Shown here piece by piece: positions 32,469 through 41,620 of a DNA stretch of 64,000 nucleotides. The position numbers were made by a program, and so were the translations under genes. Position 1 is the first letter of the stretch, and every line of letters starts with the position of its first letter. The notes under the pieces are model-generated. The model saw only the letters and a program-made list of their open reading frames with translations, was not told where the DNA came from and did no database searches. This stretch comes from a virus (taxonomy: Duplodnaviria; Caudoviricetes), in IMG/VR virus record IMGVR_UViG_3300028171_000090, positions 1 to 64,000 of that record. The stretch is one strand, 5' to 3'.

Positions 32469-32894
32469 CTAGTCTCTATCTCCATTACTTTTATTACTAT
32501 CTTCCCTATCTTGACGTTTCTTAGGCTTATTCTCATTCTCTTCATCGTATTGCTTCTTTTCTTGTTTTAATTCTTCTTCATCCAGTGGAATGCTAAAGTT
32601 CTTGAGATTGAATAATAGTAGCTTTGCGACGACGTTTAACGTATATCTACCAAAATATGCGCCCAATCCAGTGGCAACAATGCATGTTTTGATGTCGTCT
32701 ATCAAAGTGGTAAGCATTATACCTAAGAAAACTCCGATAAGTGTAGATATAAGCGCTTCCGAGATATAGTACACGGTGACCTTTGGGTCTTCAGACTCTA
32801 AGTCAGTGGCGTACCGATTTAAGCTTACTATGGATGATGTTAACAAGCTTACTGAAATCATCAGAAGGATATCTATTGTGAATAGTTTTTCCAC
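32469..32894 (-). CDS. Putative holin (3 TM, charged C-terminus)
   Basis: Three hydrophobic segments, highly charged tail, GGGGAGGTGA RBS. Confidence 0.5.
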   Translation of the reverse strand: MEKLFTIDILLMISVSLLTSSIVSLNRYATDLESEDPKVTVYYISEALISTLIGVFLGIMLTTLIDDIKTCIVATGLGAYFGRYTLNVVAKLLLFNLKNFSIPLDEEELKQEKKQYDEENENKPKKRQDREDSNKSNGDRD

Positions 32895-33351
32895 TCACAT
32901 CACCTCCCCTTTTAGCGAAGCGATTCTTACGTCTGTTGTTTAACAAGATTAAGCAAGAACAAATCAGAAGGAAAGATAATAATAATATGAACGACAGCAT
33001 AAGTAATACCATCGATTCTAACTTGTGAGTGGTTTCCTGGATATTATCTACGTATCCAAGTATCGCAAATTCGACTTCATTCGCCGACATGAGATCATAA
33101 TCGGTTGTTTCCGCATGTGCAACTAGAACTCCAGACTTAACAGGGACTGGTACACGATATGTGTCATACATCTCGCTGCGCGCTTGGAAATCGATCTCTT
33201 CAAATGAAGTTTGTAAATTCTCAGTTCTATCTTTTAGTTCACTGAAATATACGGAACTTCCAATCCCGAGTAACAGTGCACTACCAAACAAAATAAAACT
33301 AAGAATGACCACAGCTTTGCTCTTGAAGAACTTGTTACTTTTACGAATCAT
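32803..33351 (-). CDS. Two-TM membrane protein overlapping the putative holin
   Basis: TM segments at N- and C-ends; late promoter at 33400-33389. Confidence 0.6.
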   Translation of the reverse strand: MIRKSNKFFKSKAVVILSFILFGSALLLGIGSSVYFSELKDRTENLQTSFEEIDFQARSEMYDTYRVPVPVKSGVLVAHAETTDYDLMSANEVEFAILGYVDNIQETTHKLESMVLLMLSFILLLSFLLICSCLILLNNRRKNRFAKRGGDVSGKTIHNRYPSDDFSKLVNIIHSKLKSVRH

Positions 33352-33443
33352 CCTTAATCACCTCCTCATGTTGTAAAAATGGTATTGCTAATAAAATGTT
33401 GAAATAAAACGAGTGTAGGCTCTATGCCTACACTCATTATGTG

Positions 33444-33731
33444 TTATTTCTTTTTCTTCTTGTTCCATGTAAGATGGATTTTCTTTTCATTGAAATCCAT
33501 GTTCCAATCTGGAGCATCAAGAACGATATCAATTTCAGGAGCTACTTTATTAATAATAGCTTCACTTGTTTCTGTAAATTTGTTATGCGCAGCATAATAG
33601 CGAGCCATAACTTCGTCATGCATTACCTTGTTATTGATAAGCTCCATAAGAGCCGATTTTTCGTTGAATGCATCCTGTAATGCTTTTACATCTTTTGGGT
33701 CTACTTCAAAAATTTTAGTTTGAATTGCCAT
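33444..33731 (-). CDS. CXXX-repeat peptide modification system accessory protein
   Basis: V...D...LQ..F.EK..L.EL ... W.MDF...I pattern; adjacent to the maturase. Confidence 0.6.
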   Translation of the reverse strand: MAIQTKIFEVDPKDVKALQDAFNEKSALMELINNKVMHDEVMARYYAAHNKFTETSEAIINKVAPEIDIVLDAPDWNMDFNEKKIHLTWNKKKKK

Positions 33732-33770
33732 TGTAATTCCTCCTCTATATGGTTATAATAAATTGTTTCC

Positions 33771-34142
33771 CTATTGATATTCTACAATAAGAGAATTAGT
33801 TAGGAAATCTACTTTAATTTCATACGTTGTACCAGAAATAAGCTCTGCGTCTTCTTTCGGCATATATTTTTCCATCAATACTTGGAATACAAGATTATAT
33901 TCTGCGAAAGATTTAATATATTGATCGAGAATCTGGTTATAGCGTTCTTCGTCAGGTTTAAATGGTGATGTACTTGTAAACTGTGTACATAACGCTAGTA
34001 AACCATCCTTTTCATAAAGAACCCTTTGCACTACTGATGAATCCTCATACTCTAATGGGTAGGTAATTTTCTTCTTCCCATCTTCACAACATTCGTGTTT
34101 TTCTGTATCGTCATCATAACGAACTCTACATCCACATGCCAT
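33771..34142 (-). CDS. Second CXXX-repeat system accessory paralog
   Basis: VQRVLYEKDGL...YEIKVDFLTNSL, same pattern; CGC/CC N-terminus. Confidence 0.55.
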   Translation of the reverse strand: MACGCRVRYDDDTEKHECCEDGKKKITYPLEYEDSSVVQRVLYEKDGLLALCTQFTSTSPFKPDEERYNQILDQYIKSFAEYNLVFQVLMEKYMPKEDAELISGTTYEIKVDFLTNSLIVEYQ

Positions 34143-34164
34143 GATAATTCCTCCTCATTGTATA

Positions 34165-35502
34165 TTAGTCGATAGTTGGAATACCTTTACCTTGTGTGAT
34201 GAATTCGATTTCATCCGCAGTTAGGTTACATTCGAAGAAGTCGTCTTTACCTAACTTCTTGTAAAGTTTATTCCAGTAGTAATAGTTCGCAAGAACACGA
34301 ACTTTGTGCATCATACAAGTAAATGTTGCACGAATATTAGAAGAACCAAATACATCGTAGTTATGAGCTGTACACCAGCCACAGCCACTTGTTACTTGGC
34401 AGTTAAAGCACTTGTCAGTTGATTGAGAACGACGAGTGATACCGAATAGTTCTTCTACTAATGGATCGTCTTTAATGTCAATCATACCGTCATCAACGTT
34501 ACCGATAATGATTTCACGACGTTCCTTGTTTTCCATTGAATAGCTCATGAAGCGTAGGCAAGGATATAGTTTACCATCACAACCGATAGTTAACATCTTA
34601 CCATCTCCACCACACCAGTTATCATTTTCTTCTTCTTTCATCGGTTTCCCAATAGATTCTTCAAAGATACTGATAACGGCTGATTTGTAGTATCCACTTT
34701 CTAGATACCAGTCAGCTAGTTTAATTAACTGATCATAGAATACGAAAGCATCTTTTGGCTTCCATACGTTTTCAAATACTGCATTGGCATTGATTTCACG
34801 TAATCCCATTTCGAATAAATGTGGAATTGCTGTTGTGATTTTATCAATGTTTTCTGGAGCAAAGGTAACTTTAGTAGAAGATAGACCGTGTTCTGCAATT
34901 GCATTCTTCACGTTACGTTCTACGATATCATAACTACCTTTACCATTAGCGAATACACGACAAGAGTCATGTAAATCTTTGTTTCCATCAATTGTGATAG
35001 ATACAGAGATACGACCTTGGTTCTTTTCAATGAAACGTTTTACACGTTTTGTATGGTTTAGTGTACCGTTAGTTGATACACTGATCATATAGTTTAATGC
35101 CCAAGGTGAGTTTTCCATTGTAGCTTTAAAGCGGAAGTAATCCACGATAAAGTCCATTACGTCAACGTTCATGAATGGTTCTCCACCGATGAAGTCTAAG
35201 ATTACAGCTTTGTGAATCTTATCGTTAACGAAGTTTTTATTACGTTCTGTGTCAAATAATAAGTCTACTGCTTTACGAGCAACTTCTTTTGACATGAACT
35301 TTCTATTTTTACCTACTTGGTAACAGTATGTGCAACGTAAGTTACACTCTTCCGTCATAACGAAAGTAAGGTTCTTTGTAGCTAAATCTTTTTCCGAATA
35401 CTTTTCCAAGTTTTCAGGTGTATCTACATCATACATCGTTCCAAACGTATCTTGGAATTCAGATGTGGTTTTAACGTATGTCTGTTCTACAGAGCATCCC
35501 AT
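34165..35502 (-). CDS. Radical SAM/SPASM peptide maturase, CXXX-repeat target family
   Basis: CNLRCTYC; FIGGEP; SPASM cysteines WCGG...YPC...CFNC...GCGWC...TC. Confidence 0.92.
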   Translation of the reverse strand: MGCSVEQTYVKTTSEFQDTFGTMYDVDTPENLEKYSEKDLATKNLTFVMTEECNLRCTYCYQVGKNRKFMSKEVARKAVDLLFDTERNKNFVNDKIHKAVILDFIGGEPFMNVDVMDFIVDYFRFKATMENSPWALNYMISVSTNGTLNHTKRVKRFIEKNQGRISVSITIDGNKDLHDSCRVFANGKGSYDIVERNVKNAIAEHGLSSTKVTFAPENIDKITTAIPHLFEMGLREINANAVFENVWKPKDAFVFYDQLIKLADWYLESGYYKSAVISIFEESIGKPMKEEENDNWCGGDGKMLTIGCDGKLYPCLRFMSYSMENKERREIIIGNVDDGMIDIKDDPLVEELFGITRRSQSTDKCFNCQVTSGCGWCTAHNYDVFGSSNIRATFTCMMHKVRVLANYYYWNKLYKKLGKDDFFECNLTADEIEFITQGKGIPTID

Positions 35503-35588
35503 TAATTATTCCCCCTTTTGACTGTAATATTAGTATGTTGCACATAATAAGAAATGACAGGATAAGCCGAAGCTTATCCCATCTTGTT

Positions 35589-36131
35589 TTAGAATACTAA
35601 ATATTCCTCTTCAGGCACTTCACCTTCAAAGGCATTTCCATTTTCTCTATCAATCATAGATTCCGTCACATTGTGACGTTCAAAGAAGTCAGCACACTCT
35701 ACAACAGTTTCCATGTCGTTTTGAGGCTGAGCCAGCATTAATAGAGTGTGGTAGAAGATACCCATATATTCTGGTTTAATACCTTTATCCTTCGATTCAT
35801 TAATCATACGTTTTGTATTCTCAATGTCACTCTTACGGAAGTAGTATTTAATTTGGAAATGAGTTACCCCAAATGCTGCAACGTCAGGTGTATCTGCAAA
35901 CCATTTATTGATGTTAGATGTTACGATACGGAAGATATCAGCGATATTATTCTCATACTGGAATACACCCCCATCTAACATTAATCGTAAGCTATCATTT
36001 ACAAGAGGGAAGTCCTCCAATGTTTTCTCTAACATTTCTAAGTTCTTTTCTTGTAAATACTTTGTAATTAATGCATTCTTAATTAATTTTTTTGTCGCAT
36101 TAATTTCATAAGGTTTTTTGTTTTCTTCCAT
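35589..36131 (-). CDS. Helical hypothetical protein within the CXXX cluster
   Basis: AAGGA RBS; lies between substrate and maturase. Confidence 0.65.
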   Translation of the reverse strand: MEENKKPYEINATKKLIKNALITKYLQEKNLEMLEKTLEDFPLVNDSLRLMLDGGVFQYENNIADIFRIVTSNINKWFADTPDVAAFGVTHFQIKYYFRKSDIENTKRMINESKDKGIKPEYMGIFYHTLLMLAQPQNDMETVVECADFFERHNVTESMIDRENGNAFEGEVPEEEYLVF

Positions 36132-36148
36132 GGAATATCATTCCTTTC

Positions 36149-37591
36149 TTAGAATTTAGCGATTCCGCTACTTCCTACATTGTATACTGGTCTAGAGTAG
36201 TTAACGCTCATTGCTGTACCTGAGCAAGAACCTGTACAACTTGTACATCCTGAAGAACATGCTCCAGAACATCCACCTGTACATCCGCCAGAACAAGAGC
36301 TACCACAACCACCAGAACAATCACTACCACAAGTTGAAGAACAAGACGTGCTACAGCCTGTACTACATGTACCCACACAACCACCAGTACATGAGCTTAC
36401 GCAGCTACCTGTACATGATGATGTACATCCTGTACTACATCCGCCAGTACATCCACTGTTACATGCTGTTGAACAACCTGAAGCACAGTTACCGGCACAC
36501 CCTGTAGAACATGTGCTTGCACAGTTACCTGTACATGAACCAGTACATCCGCCAGTACAGTTTGTCGCACAACCTCCAGAGCACGTTCCTGTACATCCAC
36601 CAGAACAAGATGATCCACATCCGCCTGTACATGTACTACCACAAGAACTTGTACAATAAGCGGAACATCCTCCAGAACAAGAACCTCCACAGCCACCTGT
36701 ACAAGCTGAGTGACATGCTCCAGTACATACGCCAGAACCACAAGCAGAACCACAGTTACCGTGACATGTTCCACCACAGTCACCTTGACATGTGTTATTA
36801 CATGAAGAACCACAACCAGTACATCCACCGGAACAACCTGAGGAACAAGAACCACCGCAACCACCGATACAGCTTGTTGAACATCCCGCAGAACATCCAC
36901 TTACGCAACCTGTTGCACATCCTCCGCCACATGTACCTGAGCATGTTCCTGAACATCCACCTGTACATGTTGATTGACATCCACCAGCACAGCCAGTTGA
37001 ACATCCACCTGAGCACGTTCCAGAACATGAAGAACATCCACTAGAACAGTTACCAGAACATCCAGAAGAACAGTCAGCCGCACAGTTTGCAGAACAGCTA
37101 CCAGAACATCCGCCTGAACATCCACCAGAACAGTTACCTGTACAAGATGAGCTACAGCTAGTAGAACACCCACCAGAACAACTTCCTGAACATCCACCAG
37201 TACATGAGCTTGTACAACCAGTAGCACAGCCACCGCCACATGTACCTGAACAAGAACCTACGCACCCACCAACGCATGATGTACTACATAAACCAGTACA
37301 TGCACCGTTACATGAGTTACCGCCGTCTTGCTTCGAGTTTTTCAATTTATACGTAGTCGCTGCCATTTCATCCACTTCAACCATTTCTGCTTGATCTTTT
37401 GCTAATGGTTTATCGAAGTGTTTGACTTGGTCAATCGCGTCCGCCATTTCATCATAATGAACATCTTCTACAAGTTCACTTGATGTAGCTTCAGGTTTAT
37501 AGTTAGGGACTGTATTTGTTCTACTACGTCTTCCTAACTCCTGCATGACGCTCAATTTCAGTTCTCTGAAATCCTCATCAGAAATAAACAT
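36149..37591 (-). CDS. Cys-rich CXXX-repeat protein (radical SAM substrate)
   Basis: ~93-aa leader, then ~92 Cys almost all spaced CxxxC with G/S/T/A; GAGGAGGG RBS. Confidence 0.9.
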   Translation of the reverse strand: MFISDEDFRELKLSVMQELGRRSRTNTVPNYKPEATSSELVEDVHYDEMADAIDQVKHFDKPLAKDQAEMVEVDEMAATTYKLKNSKQDGGNSCNGACTGLCSTSCVGGCVGSCSGTCGGGCATGCTSSCTGGCSGSCSGGCSTSCSSSCTGNCSGGCSGGCSGSCSANCAADCSSGCSGNCSSGCSSCSGTCSGGCSTGCAGGCQSTCTGGCSGTCSGTCGGGCATGCVSGCSAGCSTSCIGGCGGSCSSGCSGGCTGCGSSCNNTCQGDCGGTCHGNCGSACGSGVCTGACHSACTGGCGGSCSGGCSAYCTSSCGSTCTGGCGSSCSGGCTGTCSGGCATNCTGGCTGSCTGNCASTCSTGCAGNCASGCSTACNSGCTGGCSTGCTSSCTGSCVSSCTGGCVGTCSTGCSTSCSSTCGSDCSGGCGSSCSGGCTGGCSGACSSGCTSCTGSCSGTAMSVNYSRPVYNVGSSGIAKF

Positions 37592-37621
37592 GTAATTCCC
37601 TCCTCTTCGTATATGCTAAGT

Positions 37622-38848
37622 CTATTTTTGTCGTCTATGGTATACACCAATGCCGACAGGTGTTACTTGTATATAGTCAACGGATAATTTGTAAGCAGGC
37701 GATGTATTAACAGTGTTAACTTCAATACGAAGCACGTCATTATAAGAACGTTCCCCTGTATATTCACACCCTACAAATATCGTTGTATATAGGTCTTTTG
37801 TATTTAACTCTTTTGGAGCAAATGCTACTCGACCAATTTCTTCTACCGTGATATTCGTTCCCATGGTAGTATTAATATATTGCTGAGGCATCTTCAGTTT
37901 CTTTATGGATATGTATATATCCTGAGTCGTTACAGCAATATCAGAAACTTTTAAACGTACGCCAATAGAATATACCCCAAACTTCATTGGCTTTGTATAA
38001 CATACAGCATAGTTTGTAATTGCTTTACCGTTTGTTGCAAGAGGGTCATCAACAATATGTTTCCCGTTGTAATAGTCATCACCTGGGAAGTATTCTGATA
38101 CACCTCTGTACACTGGACGATAATCCTCTACTAAGTAATCTGGAACTTGATAAATTTGAACTTCCGTAATGATATACTTAGCCGCAGTTTTACGCCCTTG
38201 ACCTAATTGTAATATAGGTCGAATAAAATTAGTTTTAGCCCATTCTTTTAATGTATTCGTAGTGTAGTTATTCTCATAAGCAAAGTTATCTTTGTCATTA
38301 TATACACCAGAGATTTCGAATGGTTGATTTGGTTTTACAAGTGTTGTACCTAACACTTGCGAAGTCTTTCCGTTAAAGTCTTGTGCTGATTGTGTCATTG
38401 CTTGATCTTTAAAGAAATCAACACGTAGACCGCAAGTACCTTCACCTTCTAAACAGAAGCCTTTGACTTTAAAATAGTATTCCGTTGTCCGTGATACAGA
38501 CAGCGGTATGTTTAGTGGTACTGACATAGCTGAAGTTCCAGCCATATCGATTTGTGTACCTTTCCCTTTTTCTAATGCGTCAACCCATTTGGTTGTCACA
38601 TCTGTAGGAGTTGATACATAACGTACCCAATCACCATGACCCAAAAGTAAATGCGGGTTTTGGAATGGGTATCGGCTAATCATTTCATTAATACGGTTTT
38701 CATTTTCTACTGTTTTTGATAAGTTCTTATTATTTGATCTTACGTAGAAATGACCAGTGTTACGGTCAACCATGAATTCGCCATTCTTTGCATTTGCATT
38801 CATAGAAATTGGCATAGGTATAAATCCAAACCGTGGTTCATTAGCCAT
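37622..38848 (-). CDS. Tail fibre/receptor-binding-like protein with carbohydrate-binding-type domains
   Basis: GEFMVDRNTGHFY and VDDPLATNGKA motifs; late promoter at 38886-38875. Confidence 0.5.
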   Translation of the reverse strand: MANEPRFGFIPMPISMNANAKNGEFMVDRNTGHFYVRSNNKNLSKTVENENRINEMISRYPFQNPHLLLGHGDWVRYVSTPTDVTTKWVDALEKGKGTQIDMAGTSAMSVPLNIPLSVSRTTEYYFKVKGFCLEGEGTCGLRVDFFKDQAMTQSAQDFNGKTSQVLGTTLVKPNQPFEISGVYNDKDNFAYENNYTTNTLKEWAKTNFIRPILQLGQGRKTAAKYIITEVQIYQVPDYLVEDYRPVYRGVSEYFPGDDYYNGKHIVDDPLATNGKAITNYAVCYTKPMKFGVYSIGVRLKVSDIAVTTQDIYISIKKLKMPQQYINTTMGTNITVEEIGRVAFAPKELNTKDLYTTIFVGCEYTGERSYNDVLRIEVNTVNTSPAYKLSVDYIQVTPVGIGVYHRRQK

Positions 38849-38941
38849 AGAGCTTCACCTCCATAATTTAATCTTAATTAGTTGTTTGTTATATGAATCG
38901 GGAGTGGCGGTAAAAAGAGAGAGGGATATCCCTCTCTCCTA

Positions 38942-41620
38942 TTAACGTTGTTTCATTGCTTCCGCCATTACAGATAAGTCTAATACAATAACGTTGTTAT
39001 TAAAGACATCTTTATACTTTTCATATAAATCTGGCGGAATGTTTGCTAAGTCAAATGATGGTAATGTTTCGAAATCTGTTAGGATTTGATAGTATTCATC
39101 ACCGACTGTAAGGAATTCCTCACCATCATGTTTCATTTCAGCATCTAATGGCATGTAACGAGTTTGTGACTGTTCCATATCCACGTAGATAATATTTTCA
39201 GGTTTAGTAAGTAATCCACTATACTTGAATGATACATATTTCGGCATTTCTTGAGAACTATCTACGACGTTATGCTTCAGATACTCACGATATAAGTCAT
39301 AGTACATATCAATCATACCAACCATTTCTGGTCCTGTAACATCAGGCTCATCATCTTTAATCTTCTCACCAATCATGAGAGATTTTAGATACACATCGTA
39401 TAAGTCTGGTCCTACATTATAGTTAGGAGAAAACTCCGATACTAATGCAAAACTAGAACGATTTAGATACGTATTAAAATGCTTACGTGAATTTACACTC
39501 CATAACTGTAATCCGTTATTGGTAGGAATCTCATGATAACGGTGAGAGATTCTTCTACCATTTAGATAAAATGTCATAATATTATCATTGAATGGAGCTT
39601 CTATTGTGCCTTTATTTGGTCGTACACGCCCATACTCTTCTACTAATTTCTCGTCATAAATAGCTTTCTGGCAAAATGGTAAAAATTCTATATAAATAAC
39701 TTCACCAATTGTAAAAGCTGCATCAATAGTAAATTTAGGTGTAGTTAAATCATTCATTAAGGTTGGGAATTCAACCGACCAACTATAGTGAGGTAACGTG
39801 CGACCATTTTTATAAATGCGATAATTTTCTTTATCATGTGTAAGATATGCCATCTCAAGTGTCCCATCCACTACTGCACGAGTAGTTTTACCTGGTACAA
39901 CGTATCGAGTAAAGACATTACAGAATGTGTTTACACATTTAAGAATAATCTTATCTGGAAATGTTTGAATTAACATACCATCTGTGCGTTCAGGATATGC
40001 GTAAATCGAATATCCTGAAAACGGATAATATCTTTTCTTAGTTGCATTATACATAAATAATTTAATATAATCCGTATCAAGAAAATCTTTATCCCCTATT
40101 ACGAATGCTTTGACATTAGCAGGGACAGTAACATCTCGTACTGCTACTGTACTATTCATACGCATCATTTCGAATTCGATAATAGATTTTACATTCACTC
40201 TTGATGAACGAATGTATACTAAAGTTTCATCATTCTGATGATAAATCAATGGCTCATCATCACGAATACCATCCACAAATACATTGAATCCAAAGCTTTC
40301 TGGATTTGGGATATTGATAAGAAAATACTGTTGGTCAAAATCTTTGAGCATTGCTGTATCCCATACATCAGAACGGTTATTCATTCGAAGTGCTTTATTG
40401 TAGTCCATTTTAGAAACATCTGCGAACTTGGACTCTGTAATTCTTGTTTTATCTTGTACCGTATCAATGTATTTATTATAGAATTCATAATCATAATTTG
40501 TTATTTCTTTTAGTTTCTTTGCTCGCCACTCAGTGTCATTTAGTTTTGAATCTACTAAATTTTGAGCACTAGTATCGACATTAGATAGAGAAAATTTCGT
40601 GATATATTCTGGAACTTTGTTTCCATCTAAGTCTGCAACGAGGTCTTTTCCATGGTCGGTATCGTACCATAAAACATGGTCCCGATAATCATGGACGTCA
40701 CCAGGCTGTTCCTCGTAGAATATCATAGCAAAGGCTTTGTCTACAGGAAGCGGGTCAATACGAAATACATCAGACGTAATCGCTGTTACACCTAAGTCCG
40801 TATATAAACCATTTGCGAATATCATAACGTTCTCAATATGTACTGGGAACTTATATTCACGTTTACCTTTCACCTTCCGTTGTAAACGGAAATGTTTCGT
40901 ACCTTTTGTTAAAGTTTGAGTCTGTTTCAATGTCGGCATACAGGTTATTTCTATAAGTTTACCAATAGCCGCATTGACGGTAATAACAAACTCATTGCCT
41001 ACTTTGCGGGCGGTAAAATCTGTTGTAAATAAACCATCCACATAACAGAACCAACCAAAGTTTTCAGCATAAGGATGATCCACCATGCTCAGTTTAAATA
41101 CGTTAGTAGTCTTAGACTGTAAGTCTAAGTAATAGTTTCGACGAATAATATGCATCGTTGTAAATACTTCGTATTTATACGGAACACATAAAATTGTGTG
41201 GAAATCTGTAAATACAATTTGGATATCACTAACTGGTATCTTTTTACCATTATGATACATATCAAATGTATACTCGTAGTATTTATTAAATTCACTCAAT
41301 GGAATCAATTGATACTTATCGAATTTGTGTAATAATACATCTTCTTGCGTCTGTTTACGTTCAAACTCTTCTACAAGCTCTAAACCTTGGCAGACAATAA
41401 AGAAGTGGGTAAATGGTTTCCAGTAATAATGTTCTTTATGTTTCACTTGCTCTTTAATCTGGAATCCGTTTTTCTTTACTTCATAGACATCCATACCAAC
41501 ACGTGCATCCTGCACGGTTGATAGGAGACTATAACTGTAATTCATAATAAACTCTTTAACTGTTTCATCTAAAGCTTCTTTACGAATTTGAGCTTTTCGT
41601 TCTCGGGTTAAAAGTTCCAT
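38942..41620 (-). CDS. Large virion structural protein
   Basis: 892 aa, beta-rich, late minus-strand operon. Confidence 0.5.
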   Translation of the reverse strand: MELLTRERKAQIRKEALDETVKEFIMNYSYSLLSTVQDARVGMDVYEVKKNGFQIKEQVKHKEHYYWKPFTHFFIVCQGLELVEEFERKQTQEDVLLHKFDKYQLIPLSEFNKYYEYTFDMYHNGKKIPVSDIQIVFTDFHTILCVPYKYEVFTTMHIIRRNYYLDLQSKTTNVFKLSMVDHPYAENFGWFCYVDGLFTTDFTARKVGNEFVITVNAAIGKLIEITCMPTLKQTQTLTKGTKHFRLQRKVKGKREYKFPVHIENVMIFANGLYTDLGVTAITSDVFRIDPLPVDKAFAMIFYEEQPGDVHDYRDHVLWYDTDHGKDLVADLDGNKVPEYITKFSLSNVDTSAQNLVDSKLNDTEWRAKKLKEITNYDYEFYNKYIDTVQDKTRITESKFADVSKMDYNKALRMNNRSDVWDTAMLKDFDQQYFLINIPNPESFGFNVFVDGIRDDEPLIYHQNDETLVYIRSSRVNVKSIIEFEMMRMNSTVAVRDVTVPANVKAFVIGDKDFLDTDYIKLFMYNATKKRYYPFSGYSIYAYPERTDGMLIQTFPDKIILKCVNTFCNVFTRYVVPGKTTRAVVDGTLEMAYLTHDKENYRIYKNGRTLPHYSWSVEFPTLMNDLTTPKFTIDAAFTIGEVIYIEFLPFCQKAIYDEKLVEEYGRVRPNKGTIEAPFNDNIMTFYLNGRRISHRYHEIPTNNGLQLWSVNSRKHFNTYLNRSSFALVSEFSPNYNVGPDLYDVYLKSLMIGEKIKDDEPDVTGPEMVGMIDMYYDLYREYLKHNVVDSSQEMPKYVSFKYSGLLTKPENIIYVDMEQSQTRYMPLDAEMKHDGEEFLTVGDEYYQILTDFETLPSFDLANIPPDLYEKYKDVFNNNVIVLDLSVMAEAMKQR

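Follow-up and report, generated by a model that had tools for sequence, protein, structure and literature searches.

A predicted CXXX-repeat radical SAM maturation cassette beside a receptor-binding-type gene in a jumbo phage

The closest described counterpart of the locus reported here is the CXXX-repeat system of the NCBIfam and TIGRFAMs collections, with a radical SAM/SPASM maturase family (TIGR04115), a target family (TIGR04114/TIGR04117, PF27846) and an accessory family (TIGR04116); the locus shares with it the maturase family, a target with cysteine at every fourth residue and a gene set on one strand. In the literature we found no published biochemistry of this modification system, and no publication describing a phage tail-linked kit of cysteine repeats and maturase of this kind. 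PapB, with its substrate PapA (freyrasin), and the ranthipeptide/SCIFF maturases are likewise SPASM enzymes whose targets repeat a Cys-X3 motif; in the short peptide PapA the motif is Cys-X3-Asp and the acceptor is acidic. Among phage proteins, gp38 of T2 and S16, gpG of P2 and Tfa of Mu and lambda, whose genes come immediately after that of the distal tail fibre, are adhesins or assembly factors and are not known to need radical SAM modification. Cargo genes, too, are classically found in phages at the junction of fibre and lysis genes.

We analysed a cassette within a 64,000-nucleotide stretch of phage DNA, here called the window. The carrier is a giant soil phage, an AR9-like jumbo phage, with one long substrate.

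Genes and signals of the cassette

Five open reading frames on the minus strand, which a preliminary description had singled out as a CXXX-repeat radical SAM cluster, lie where it placed them and are all intact (Table 1). Target, maturase and helpers form an adjacent gene set on one strand. On sequence grounds, we assign the cassette as a phage-borne member of a CXXX-repeat radical SAM maturation system that is known from databases and biochemically uncharacterised.

Table 1. Features of the cassette and its immediate surroundings, in the direction of transcription
Feature	Positions	Strand	Remarks
Hairpin with T-run, intrinsic-terminator-like	38911..38940	-	After 892-aa gene; closes upstream unit
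AACA-N6-TW late-promoter-like motif	38879..38890	-	42 nt before ATG of 408-aa gene
408-aa protein, predicted receptor-binding type	37622..38848	-	AF2, Foldseek, BLASTP
Predicted CXXX-repeat substrate, 480 aa	36149..37591	-	N-domain, Cys ladder, 24-aa tail
180-aa all-helical, TPR-like protein	35589..36131	-	Predicted same transcription unit as substrate
Intrinsic-terminator-like hairpin	35556..35583	-	After 180-aa gene
AACA-N6-TW late-promoter-like motif	35528..35539	-	37 nt before maturase ATG
Radical SAM/SPASM maturase, CXXX-repeat target family	34165..35502	-	TIGR04115, 434.4 bits (cut-off 350)
123-aa accessory protein	33771..34142	-	Iterated profile; family in 149/172 loci
AACA-N6-TW late-promoter-like motif	33756..33767	-	36 nt before ATG of 95-aa gene
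95-aa accessory protein, closer of the two to TIGR04116 (CXXX_rpt_assoc)	33444..33731	-	Profile, hhalign
Intrinsic-terminator-like hairpin	33408..33438	-	After 95-aa gene; closes cassette
182-aa protein and 141-aa holin-like protein	32469..33351	-	Context genes, directly downstream

The maturase matches TIGR04115 above the cut-off, over model positions 1-359 of 359, which bears out the family assignment. The match starts at residue 42, and the protein has no N-terminal domain of RRE size. Pfam Radical_SAM, Fer4_12 and SPASM were also matched; the CX3CX2C motif is present at C53/C57/C60, and seven SPASM cysteines (C297, C315, C365, C368, C374, C377 and C396) are invariant in alignment A1. The second-best family was PapB (NF047865; 205.6 bits, E 1e-60), below its cut-off of 340, and SCIFF and sactipeptide families (TIGR03974, TIGR04068, NF035951 and others) scored 70-123 bits against cut-offs of 425-720. 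The nearest matches in the phage collection were uncultured gut contigs, 36-40% identical, and no cultured carrier was found there; the enzymes of enterobacterial, SPN3US-like jumbo phages are only about 26% identical.

The substrate gene lies 646 nt upstream of the maturase gene. As had been described, its product is cysteine-rich, with 92 cysteines forming a ladder of 363 residues (residues 94-456); of the 91 spacings, 87 are of four residues, three of three and one of five. The X positions are rich in S, T, G, A and N, with Gly the most frequent residue at two of the three. The nucleotide repeat is degenerate, 88 of its 90 12-nt units being unique, so the periodicity is maintained in the protein and does not stem from recent slippage. 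The N-terminal domain, about 93-95 aa, is conserved, a single family accounting for 111 of 125 substrate N-domains, and the C-terminal tail opens with a conserved G-T-A-M-S motif found again in other loci. TIGR04114 gave 8.1 bits against a cut-off of 20; Pfam PF27846 (tSAM_targ_Cxxx_rpt) is present in sequence homologues of the substrate. The TIGRFAM numbers given in the preliminary description were nearly right: TIGR04115 holds for the maturase, and TIGR04114 (target repeat) and TIGR04116 (accessory) have no qualifying HMM match here.

The two small proteins had been called paralogs, and sequence profiles show them to be remote ones. BLASTP detected no similarity between them (E=29). However, a profile built from other loci, with the window sequences left out, recovered the 123-aa protein at 66 bits and the 95-aa protein at 26.7 bits over its full length, and hhalign scored the two types against each other at 47%. 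Compared by hhalign with true TIGR04116 proteins, the 95-aa type reached a probability of 94% (E 9e-8) and the 123-aa type only 18%. The TIGR04116 model itself gave no direct HMM match to either; an iterated profile joins both with true TIGR04116 members, and 5 of 81 members of the family match TIGR04116 directly. The AF2 model of the 123-aa protein (pLDDT 89.8) has a beta segment, two long helices and a beta-hairpin, with a Cys-rich N-terminal extension. It has no PDB match; in AFDB, its structural neighbours are small proteins annotated 'phage protein' and the C-terminal end of a SPASM protein of 662 aa. The 180-aa protein, described beforehand as helical, is indeed modelled as such (ESM Atlas, pLDDT 0.84), with TPR-like structural neighbours at a TM of about 0.5; family and HMM searches returned no match for it, and its gene is missing from three sister phages (L004, L168 and L169).

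The AACA-N6-TW motif has low information content. Of 223 genes, 44 have it 10-70 nt upstream, where about 4% would be expected to, and it peaks at 30-40 nt. Of the late promoters proposed previously, those at 35539 and 33767 coincide with such motifs, and the first starts at 38890 instead of 38886. Terminator-like hairpins separate the predicted transcription units of the cassette; the one ahead of the 408-aa gene was read directly in the sequence and is not listed by the automatic terminator scan. Since only 30 nt, with no terminator, lie between the 408-aa gene and the substrate gene, their co-transcription, as already suggested, is plausible.

Tail-gene context

The 408-aa neighbour probably qualifies as a tail-fibre or receptor-binding protein, to judge from C-terminal homology and a CBM-like predicted fold. 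AF2 places a short N-terminal beta/helix segment before two CBM-like beta-sandwiches, with pLDDT 77-92 in the C-terminal domain. Foldseek matched a CBM22 tandem (1.6e-9) as well as viral tail proteins that have CBMs of the CenC type (E about 1e-8 to 1e-9), both at a TM of only 0.2-0.3. The C-terminal domain of about 130 aa, here termed fibC, is common to prophage tail-fibre proteins: BLASTP linked it to fibre proteins in loci L024 (1e-12) and L005 (1e-8), and a relative forms the C-terminus of a P2-type fibre bearing Pfam Phage_tail_fib. Among 36 proteins with fibC, the domain is C-terminal in all and directly upstream of a substrate gene in 32.

The flanks had been described as tail fibre-like, which is borne out for the 408-aa gene only; the 892- and 1019-aa neighbours gave no informative matches in homology searches and are not demonstrably tail genes. 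For this phage, the placement inside a tail gene block is documented only in part. Downstream, the 141-aa protein weakly matches phrog_6384 'holin' (E 2.8e-4), and the 182-aa protein has hydrophobic stretches that, judged by eye, resemble membrane segments. The order fibre, cassette, lysis is that of prophages.

We surveyed 172 related loci and found a same-strand CXXX-repeat gene near the maturase gene in 152. Substrates have a median length of 226 aa and up to 130 Cys; they are typically proteins of 200-500 aa, not peptides. Relatives of the maturase are encoded on at least 485 viral contigs of IMG/VR. Among bacterial loci, 62 extend 5 kb or more upstream, and in 44 of these same-strand baseplate or tail genes lie just upstream. 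In a set of 129 upstream neighbours, the most frequent Pfam families all belong to tails or baseplates (Mu_Gp48, 8; Tail_P2_I, 7; Phage_tail_fib, 6; DUF2612, 4; Mtd_N, 4; BppU_N, 3). In jumbo phages, as in prophages of the P2-like, PBSX/Mu-like and SPbeta-like types, the cassette lies just 3' of genes for the tail fibre or baseplate; it keeps this position in the tail module of unrelated phages with four tail architectures.

Some substrates are fused to tail domains. In P0134, CXXX repeats are joined to phrog_5302 'tail protein' (E 1.6e-32) in a gene adjoining a radical SAM gene; in P0172, their partner is a glycine-rich domain that recurs in the 903-aa protein encoded next to it in the fibre block, and the gene lies between a Phage_fiber_rpt gene and the endolysin gene. 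The substrate of L165 has an N-domain, a ladder and a globular C-terminal domain of 190 aa, a fibre-like layout. No co-variation links the substrate N-domain to the fibre domain upstream: the N-domains nearest to that of the window come from loci with other upstream proteins, a point against the tail-associated reading set out below.

Possible roles of the modified protein

With some reserve, we favour the reading in which the SPASM enzyme matures a large CXXX protein that is made late and functions alongside the tail fibre or receptor-binding apparatus. During late infection, one unit would supply the 408-aa CBM-like tail protein, the 480-aa Cys-ladder protein and the TPR-like helper, and two further units the SPASM maturase and the two TIGR04116-like helpers. 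Helpers, maturase or both would recognise the conserved N-terminal domain of the substrate, acting as a leader that would be retained because no protease is encoded. The maturase would walk along the ladder, turning Cys thiols into covalent intramolecular cross-links, which by homology to PapB-type and SCIFF-type enzymes would most likely be thioethers to a neighbouring residue; against this, the enzyme scores below the cut-offs of the PapB and SCIFF families. Given the dominance of Gly at the X positions, a PapB-like link to a side-chain carbon cannot be made in every repeat. The outcome might be a rod built of small fused rings, resistant to proteases and indifferent to redox state, which would be exposed on the fibre or next to it. 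The preliminary description had likewise proposed a virion appendage instead of a secreted RiPP, and synteny, fibC, the fusions and substrate size lend this strong comparative support at the sequence level.

Alternatively, the cassette could be cargo (a moron), the fibre junction merely tolerating insertions. The product would then be a heavily modified, RiPP-like protein outside the particle, freed at lysis or intracellular, and might act in competition, signalling, surface coating or manipulation of the host or its defences. The cassette region does take up cargo, as shown by a dUTPase gene and an Acb2/Tad1-like gene inserted within it in sister phage L168; a holin-like gene lies just downstream in the window, and the nearest characterised relatives of the maturase produce peptide natural products. 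Moreover, a cellular clade (Bacteroidota, Ignavibacteriota, Acidobacteriota) has the CXXX system without phage context; there, short substrates occur several in tandem, sigma-54 regulators or TatC are encoded nearby and an additional protein of 310-330 aa is present. We nevertheless consider cargo unlikely: substrates of 200-600 aa have conserved terminal domains, the substrate gene adjoins one specific fibre C-terminal domain and is apparently co-transcribed with a receptor-binding-type gene, fusions to tail-protein domains occur, and the position is constant in four tail architectures. Family searches of the cluster genes also returned no transporter or peptidase, in line with the preliminary description, and no immunity gene.

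It is improbable, in our view, that the ladder is a metal or iron-sulfur scaffold or a transient fibre-assembly factor, or that the SPASM reaction is of a non-thioether type, such as epimerisation or the formylglycine-forming Cys oxidation known from anaerobic sulfatase maturases. The substrate does occupy the slot of tail-fibre assembly chaperones, directly 3' of the fibre gene; a NifU-like gene accompanies the cassette in L171; the Gly-rich X positions disfavour uniform side-chain thioethers; and the anaerobic sulfatase maturase family is among the weaker matches of the enzyme (E 1.5e-19). However, its second-best family, PapB, forms thioethers, the thioether-forming SCIFF and sactipeptide maturases are among its strong matches, and 92 evenly spaced Cys, selected at the protein level, with a dedicated enzyme and helpers (149-152 of 172 loci) better fit processive covalent modification than a metal site. 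That the cassette is a recent, unexpressed host-derived insertion, or is decaying, is very hard to credit. The G+C content of the substrate gene (0.46) does exceed that of the genome (about 0.34), but this reflects its Cys, Gly, Ser and Thr codons; G+C in the flanking genes of the cassette is 0.33-0.37, and TGT encodes 83 of the 92 cysteines, a codon choice that agrees with other phage genes. The three sister jumbo phages carry the cassette in the same place, with maturases 51-56% identical and in one clade with that of the window, and phage-type promoter motifs and terminators frame intact reading frames. Synteny and phage-like composition thus largely refute recent insertion, which the preliminary description had named as a refuting condition.

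Returning to the tail-associated reading, the presence of the same kit in the tail-fibre slot of hundreds of phages suggests that phages may chemically staple a part of the tail. More tentatively, and with doubts that outweigh our confidence, we propose that in phages of anaerobes a RiPP-type radical SAM enzyme uses a long Cys ladder in a tail-fibre-associated protein to build a chain of covalent thioether rings. If true, that protein would be the first virion part stapled by an enzyme and made redox-proof, and would point to 'RiPP proteins', a class whose members run to hundreds of residues. The ladder, as shaft or tip, would then serve to recognise the host or to survive where conditions are reducing and proteases abundant.

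Comparison with known systems

Compared with PapB/PapA, the substrate here has no conserved acceptor, Gly dominates and 92 repeats lie within a protein; export and cleavage genes are absent and the context is that of a phage tail. The likeness to gp38, gpG and Tfa is one of gene position and small-residue richness: the gene lies directly 3' of a fibre gene whose C-terminal domain is conserved alongside it, and the repeat region is rich in Gly and Ser. Relative to the NCBIfam/TIGRFAMs system, the helpers are only remotely homologous to TIGR04116, duplicated and too diverged for the model. The target has 480 aa, including a conserved N-domain, and no counterpart of the cellular clade's 310-330-aa protein is present. 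Finally, the cassette here sits among the predicted late genes of a jumbo phage, beside a receptor-binding-type protein.

Gene set, expression signals and age of the cassette

The viral record that holds the window, which is its first 64 kb, is 223 kb long, with split RNA-polymerase genes and ~34% G+C. Six genes of the cassette region run on the minus strand from 38848 to 33444. A DNA search of a cultured-phage collection found no match for the cassette, and a protein search of cultured phages found none for the 408-aa protein or its 892-aa and 1019-aa flanking neighbours; the ESM Atlas neighbours of the latter two score <0.9 and serve only as leads. Maturase matches in the phage collection were confined to uncultured gut contigs (36-40% identical) and enterobacterial jumbo-phage enzymes (~26%).

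Genes and signals of the cassette and of the region downstream of it in the window
Feature	Position	Strand	Remarks
Receptor-binding-type protein	37622-38848	minus	408 aa
Cys-ladder substrate	36149-37591	minus	480 aa, 92 Cys
180-aa protein	35589-36131	minus
Radical SAM/SPASM maturase	34165-35502	minus	445 aa
Accessory protein	33771-34142	minus	123 aa
Accessory protein	33444-33731	minus	95 aa
Late-promoter word AACA-N6-TW (AR9-type)	starts 38890, 35539, 33767	minus	36-42 nt 5' of start codons
Hairpin terminators			3' of the 892-aa, 180-aa and 95-aa genes
Membrane-segment-like protein and overlapping holin-like ORF	32469-33351		182 aa with two hydrophobic stretches; 141 aa
Polyphosphate kinase (PPK1)	24585-26783		a few genes past the cassette

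Genome-wide, 44 of 223 genes (~4% expected) have the late-promoter word at a distance of 10-70 nt on their 5' side, and the distances peak at 30-40 nt. The gap between the 408-aa gene and the substrate gene is only 30 nt. The transcription units predicted from the sequence are the 408-aa, substrate and 180-aa genes together, the maturase with the 123-aa gene, and the 95-aa gene alone. The cassette stretch is present in 21 soil metatranscriptome libraries as assembled Logan contigs that span the whole phage, which does not prove that the cassette is transcribed. In two metatranscriptome assemblies, contigs over the cassette (33380-39560) have ~2x the depth of those on either side, with a break close to the terminator (33408-33438); a contig from a DNA run spans the region at uniform depth. 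The doubled depth and the break are only a weak hint of transcription.

The cassette could have been a recent insertion from a host, and the preliminary description had proposed a synteny survey across jumbo phages. Gene order is kept in three sister phages (a ~315-aa virion protein, a ~880-aa protein, a ~360-aa protein, substrate, maturase and two accessory genes), with maturase identity of 51-56%, and these phages form one clade with the window (support 100/88). The G+C content and Cys-codon choice of the cassette match the phage. We conclude that a recent host insertion is effectively excluded. PPK1 also lies beyond the cassette in two sisters (L004, 17232-19772; L169, 16101-18860), there with an extra PLDc_2 domain, so its position is conserved in the lineage. 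In a sister jumbo phage, dUTPase and Acb2/Tad1-hairpin (anti-defence sponge-like) genes stand between the two accessory paralogs (L168, 10625-11534).

Maturase and accessory proteins

The preliminary description had likened the gene set to the CXXX-repeat families. An HMM search bore this out for the maturase, which scored 434 bits against NCBIfam TIGR04115 ("radical SAM peptide maturase, CXXX-repeat target family"; curated cut-off 350); the next-best families, PapB (206), nif11-type (123) and SCIFF (111), all fell below their own cut-offs. The CX3CX2C motif and the seven conserved SPASM cysteines are present, and only ~40 residues precede the core, leaving no space for a fused recognition domain. 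Hint/intein Pfam domains occur in the maturase homologues P0002, P0005, P0026, P0029, P0035 and P0040, some on contigs of up to ~200 kb, and intein domains also on one CXXX substrate relative (P0212); in two related loci the maturase is split by a ~1.5-kb insertion (L001 and L003, 8019-11424).

BLASTP finds no similarity between the two accessory proteins, and the TIGR04116 model gave no direct match to either. An iterated profile seeded with the 123-aa protein places the family in 149 of 172 related loci and, when rebuilt without the window sequences, matches both ORFs over their full length (66 and 26.7 bits). By hhalign, the 123-aa protein is related to the 95-aa type with a probability of 47%, and the latter to true TIGR04116 proteins, which are 5 of the 81 members of the accessory family, with one of 94%. 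The earlier view of the two as paralogs is therefore right at a remote level. The AlphaFold model of the 123-aa protein (pLDDT 89.8) has one strand, two long helices and a beta-hairpin; a PDB fold search returned nothing significant and no PqqD/RRE-like fold. In the AlphaFold database it resembles short entries annotated "phage protein" and, in a SPASM enzyme of 662 aa, the C-terminal end; this likeness hints that the helper fold may act with the maturase. A predicted complex of both helpers with the N-domain of the substrate scored 0.00 (pLDDT of the partner fold 32-33) and gives no indication on binding either way. The 180-aa protein, TPR-like in its ESM Atlas model, is absent from the sister phages.

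Substrates and their association with phage tails

The cysteines of the window substrate span residues 94 to 456 and are spaced by exactly four in 87 of 91 intervals; Ser, Thr, Gly, Ala and Asn predominate at the remaining positions. The repeat DNA is degenerate (88 of 90 12-nt units are unique, and tandem-repeat scores are low), which argues that the periodicity is maintained on the protein and was not made by recent slippage. We collected 172 related loci: 80 from bacterial genomes or MAGs, 80 from metagenomes, and the remainder from viral contigs and the sister phages. A CXXX-repeat gene lies nearby on the maturase strand in 152 of them. The substrates have a median of 226 aa and 31 Cys, with a maximum of 130 Cys, so that the window substrate is at the long end of the range and not unique. 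They usually carry an N-terminal domain of ~100 aa, which belongs to a single family, including that of the window, in 111 of 125 cases; in a second architecture, a ~110-aa domain is C-terminal to the repeats.

Substrates occur as tandem pairs at nine loci (L020, L035, L042, L049, L052, L061, L068, L076 and L084), where the first gene is leader-bearing, has ~12 Cys and ends in a conserved G-[ST]-x-M motif, and the second is leaderless and longer (~45 Cys). We considered that several such "split" substrates might be frameshifts, and rejected this, since each of them comprises two distinct genes that have their own ribosome-binding sites.

Most cassette carriers are strict anaerobes; several are prophages of cultured strains, and the family is found in many gut Clostridia prophages. 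Cultured carriers include Vallitalea maricola AN17-2, Anaerobacterium chartisolvens DSM 27016, Desnuesiella massiliensis, Neglectibacter timonensis SN17, Eubacterium pyruvativorans i6, Anaerolentibacter hominis and a Brevibacillus strain. At least 485 IMG/VR viral contigs encode a maturase relative. In one clade (Bacteroidota, Ignavibacteriota and Acidobacteriota), the surroundings are ordinary chromosomal ones, and there are several short tandem substrates and an additional 310-330-aa protein; flanking genes there include TatC (L065, 12658-13446) and a hybrid sensor kinase with a sigma-54 activator (L071, 2439-5018). On a 210-kb phage-like contig whose maturase groups with that of a Brevibacillus prophage and not with the window's clade, NifU-like iron-sulfur scaffold and VanY/M15 endolysin-type genes follow the cassette (L171, 12941-14231).

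The neighbourhood of the cassettes points to phage tails. In three Pfam-annotated loci, the maturase directly follows a P2-like, PBSX/Mu-like or SPbeta-like tail module, and in two of these it precedes lysis genes. For the 129 genes immediately 5' of cassettes, every one of the commonest Pfam families is a tail or baseplate family. Locally iterated profiles detected same-strand baseplate or tail genes within a few kb upstream in 44 of the 62 bacterial loci whose upstream DNA extends to at least 5 kb, a figure that is a lower bound. Downstream of the window's cassette, a 141-aa holin-like ORF (weak phrog_6384 match) overlaps the gene of the 182-aa protein, and the two ORFs echo the prophage order of fibre, cassette and lysis; no endolysin was identified near them.

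The C-terminal 130-140 residues of the 408-aa protein (fibC) are homologous to the C-termini of prophage proteins encoded directly before the substrate, one of which is a P2-type fibre with Pfam Phage_tail_fib. The domain is C-terminal in all 36 proteins that carry it, and 32 of these are encoded within 150 nt of the substrate gene. AlphaFold models it confidently, within an overall fold of two CBM-like beta-sandwiches; the best structural hits are a CBM22 tandem and, in the viral model set, tail proteins that carry CenC-type modules, at low TM-scores (0.2-0.3). The corresponding protein of the sister phages ends in a different C-terminus, a difference typical of the mosaicism of receptor-binding proteins. 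In 37 further loci, the protein before the substrate ends in a domain of a second family, and hhalign shows no relation between the two families. A search for co-variation between the N-domain of the substrate and the C-domain of the fibre gave a negative result.

Fusions join the repeats to tail domains themselves. Among 120 substrate relatives, non-repeat sequence flanks the repeats N-terminally over 200-520 aa in 46 and C-terminally over 150-630 aa in 17. In P0134, whose gene adjoins a radical SAM gene on a 162-kb TAG-recoded phage contig (L172), 280 residues of CXXX repeats are joined to a region matching phrog_5302 "tail protein" (E 1.6e-32). This gene gives its recorded product only if TAG is read as Gln, marking the carrier as a stop-codon-recoded phage. 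In P0172, the repeats are joined to an ALK/LTK-type glycine-rich domain that recurs in an adjacent 903-aa protein, within a fibre block running from a Phage_fiber_rpt gene to an endolysin. For nine other fused CXXX proteins, PHROGs gave no match outside the repeats. The P0134 and P0172 fusions give the strongest computational indication that the ladder belongs to tail proteins.

Predicted chemistry and relation to known systems

By homology, the maturase most likely makes thioether cross-links. Gly is commonest at two of the three X positions of the substrate repeat, so not every repeat can be linked to a side-chain carbon; backbone alpha-carbon links, partial modification or another reaction would be alternatives. 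As the preliminary description had noted, the cluster encodes no protease or exporter, and hence the conserved substrate N-domain is probably retained. A rationale for thioethers may lie in the carriers: an anaerobic setting permits radical-SAM catalysis but would not let disulfides persist, so that thioethers would be a reasonable way of bracing an extracellular protein.

The cassette is real and coherent; its function is a prediction. Our literature searches (CXXX-repeat, TIGR04115, SPASM/tail fiber, ranthipeptide/phage, virion thioether) found the system described neither for its chemistry nor for a link to phage tails, and it is known as curated database families. A virion role would account for an uncharacterised family that hundreds of viral contigs and many prophages of gut Clostridia carry, and phage structural biology would gain a new kind of post-translational modification. 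For protein stapling, the maturase could be of interest as a natural enzyme placing up to ~100 cross-links in a single protein by processive action. The known products of radical-SAM thioether chemistry are small secreted peptides; if our reading is true, the same chemistry also builds a structural part of virus particles.
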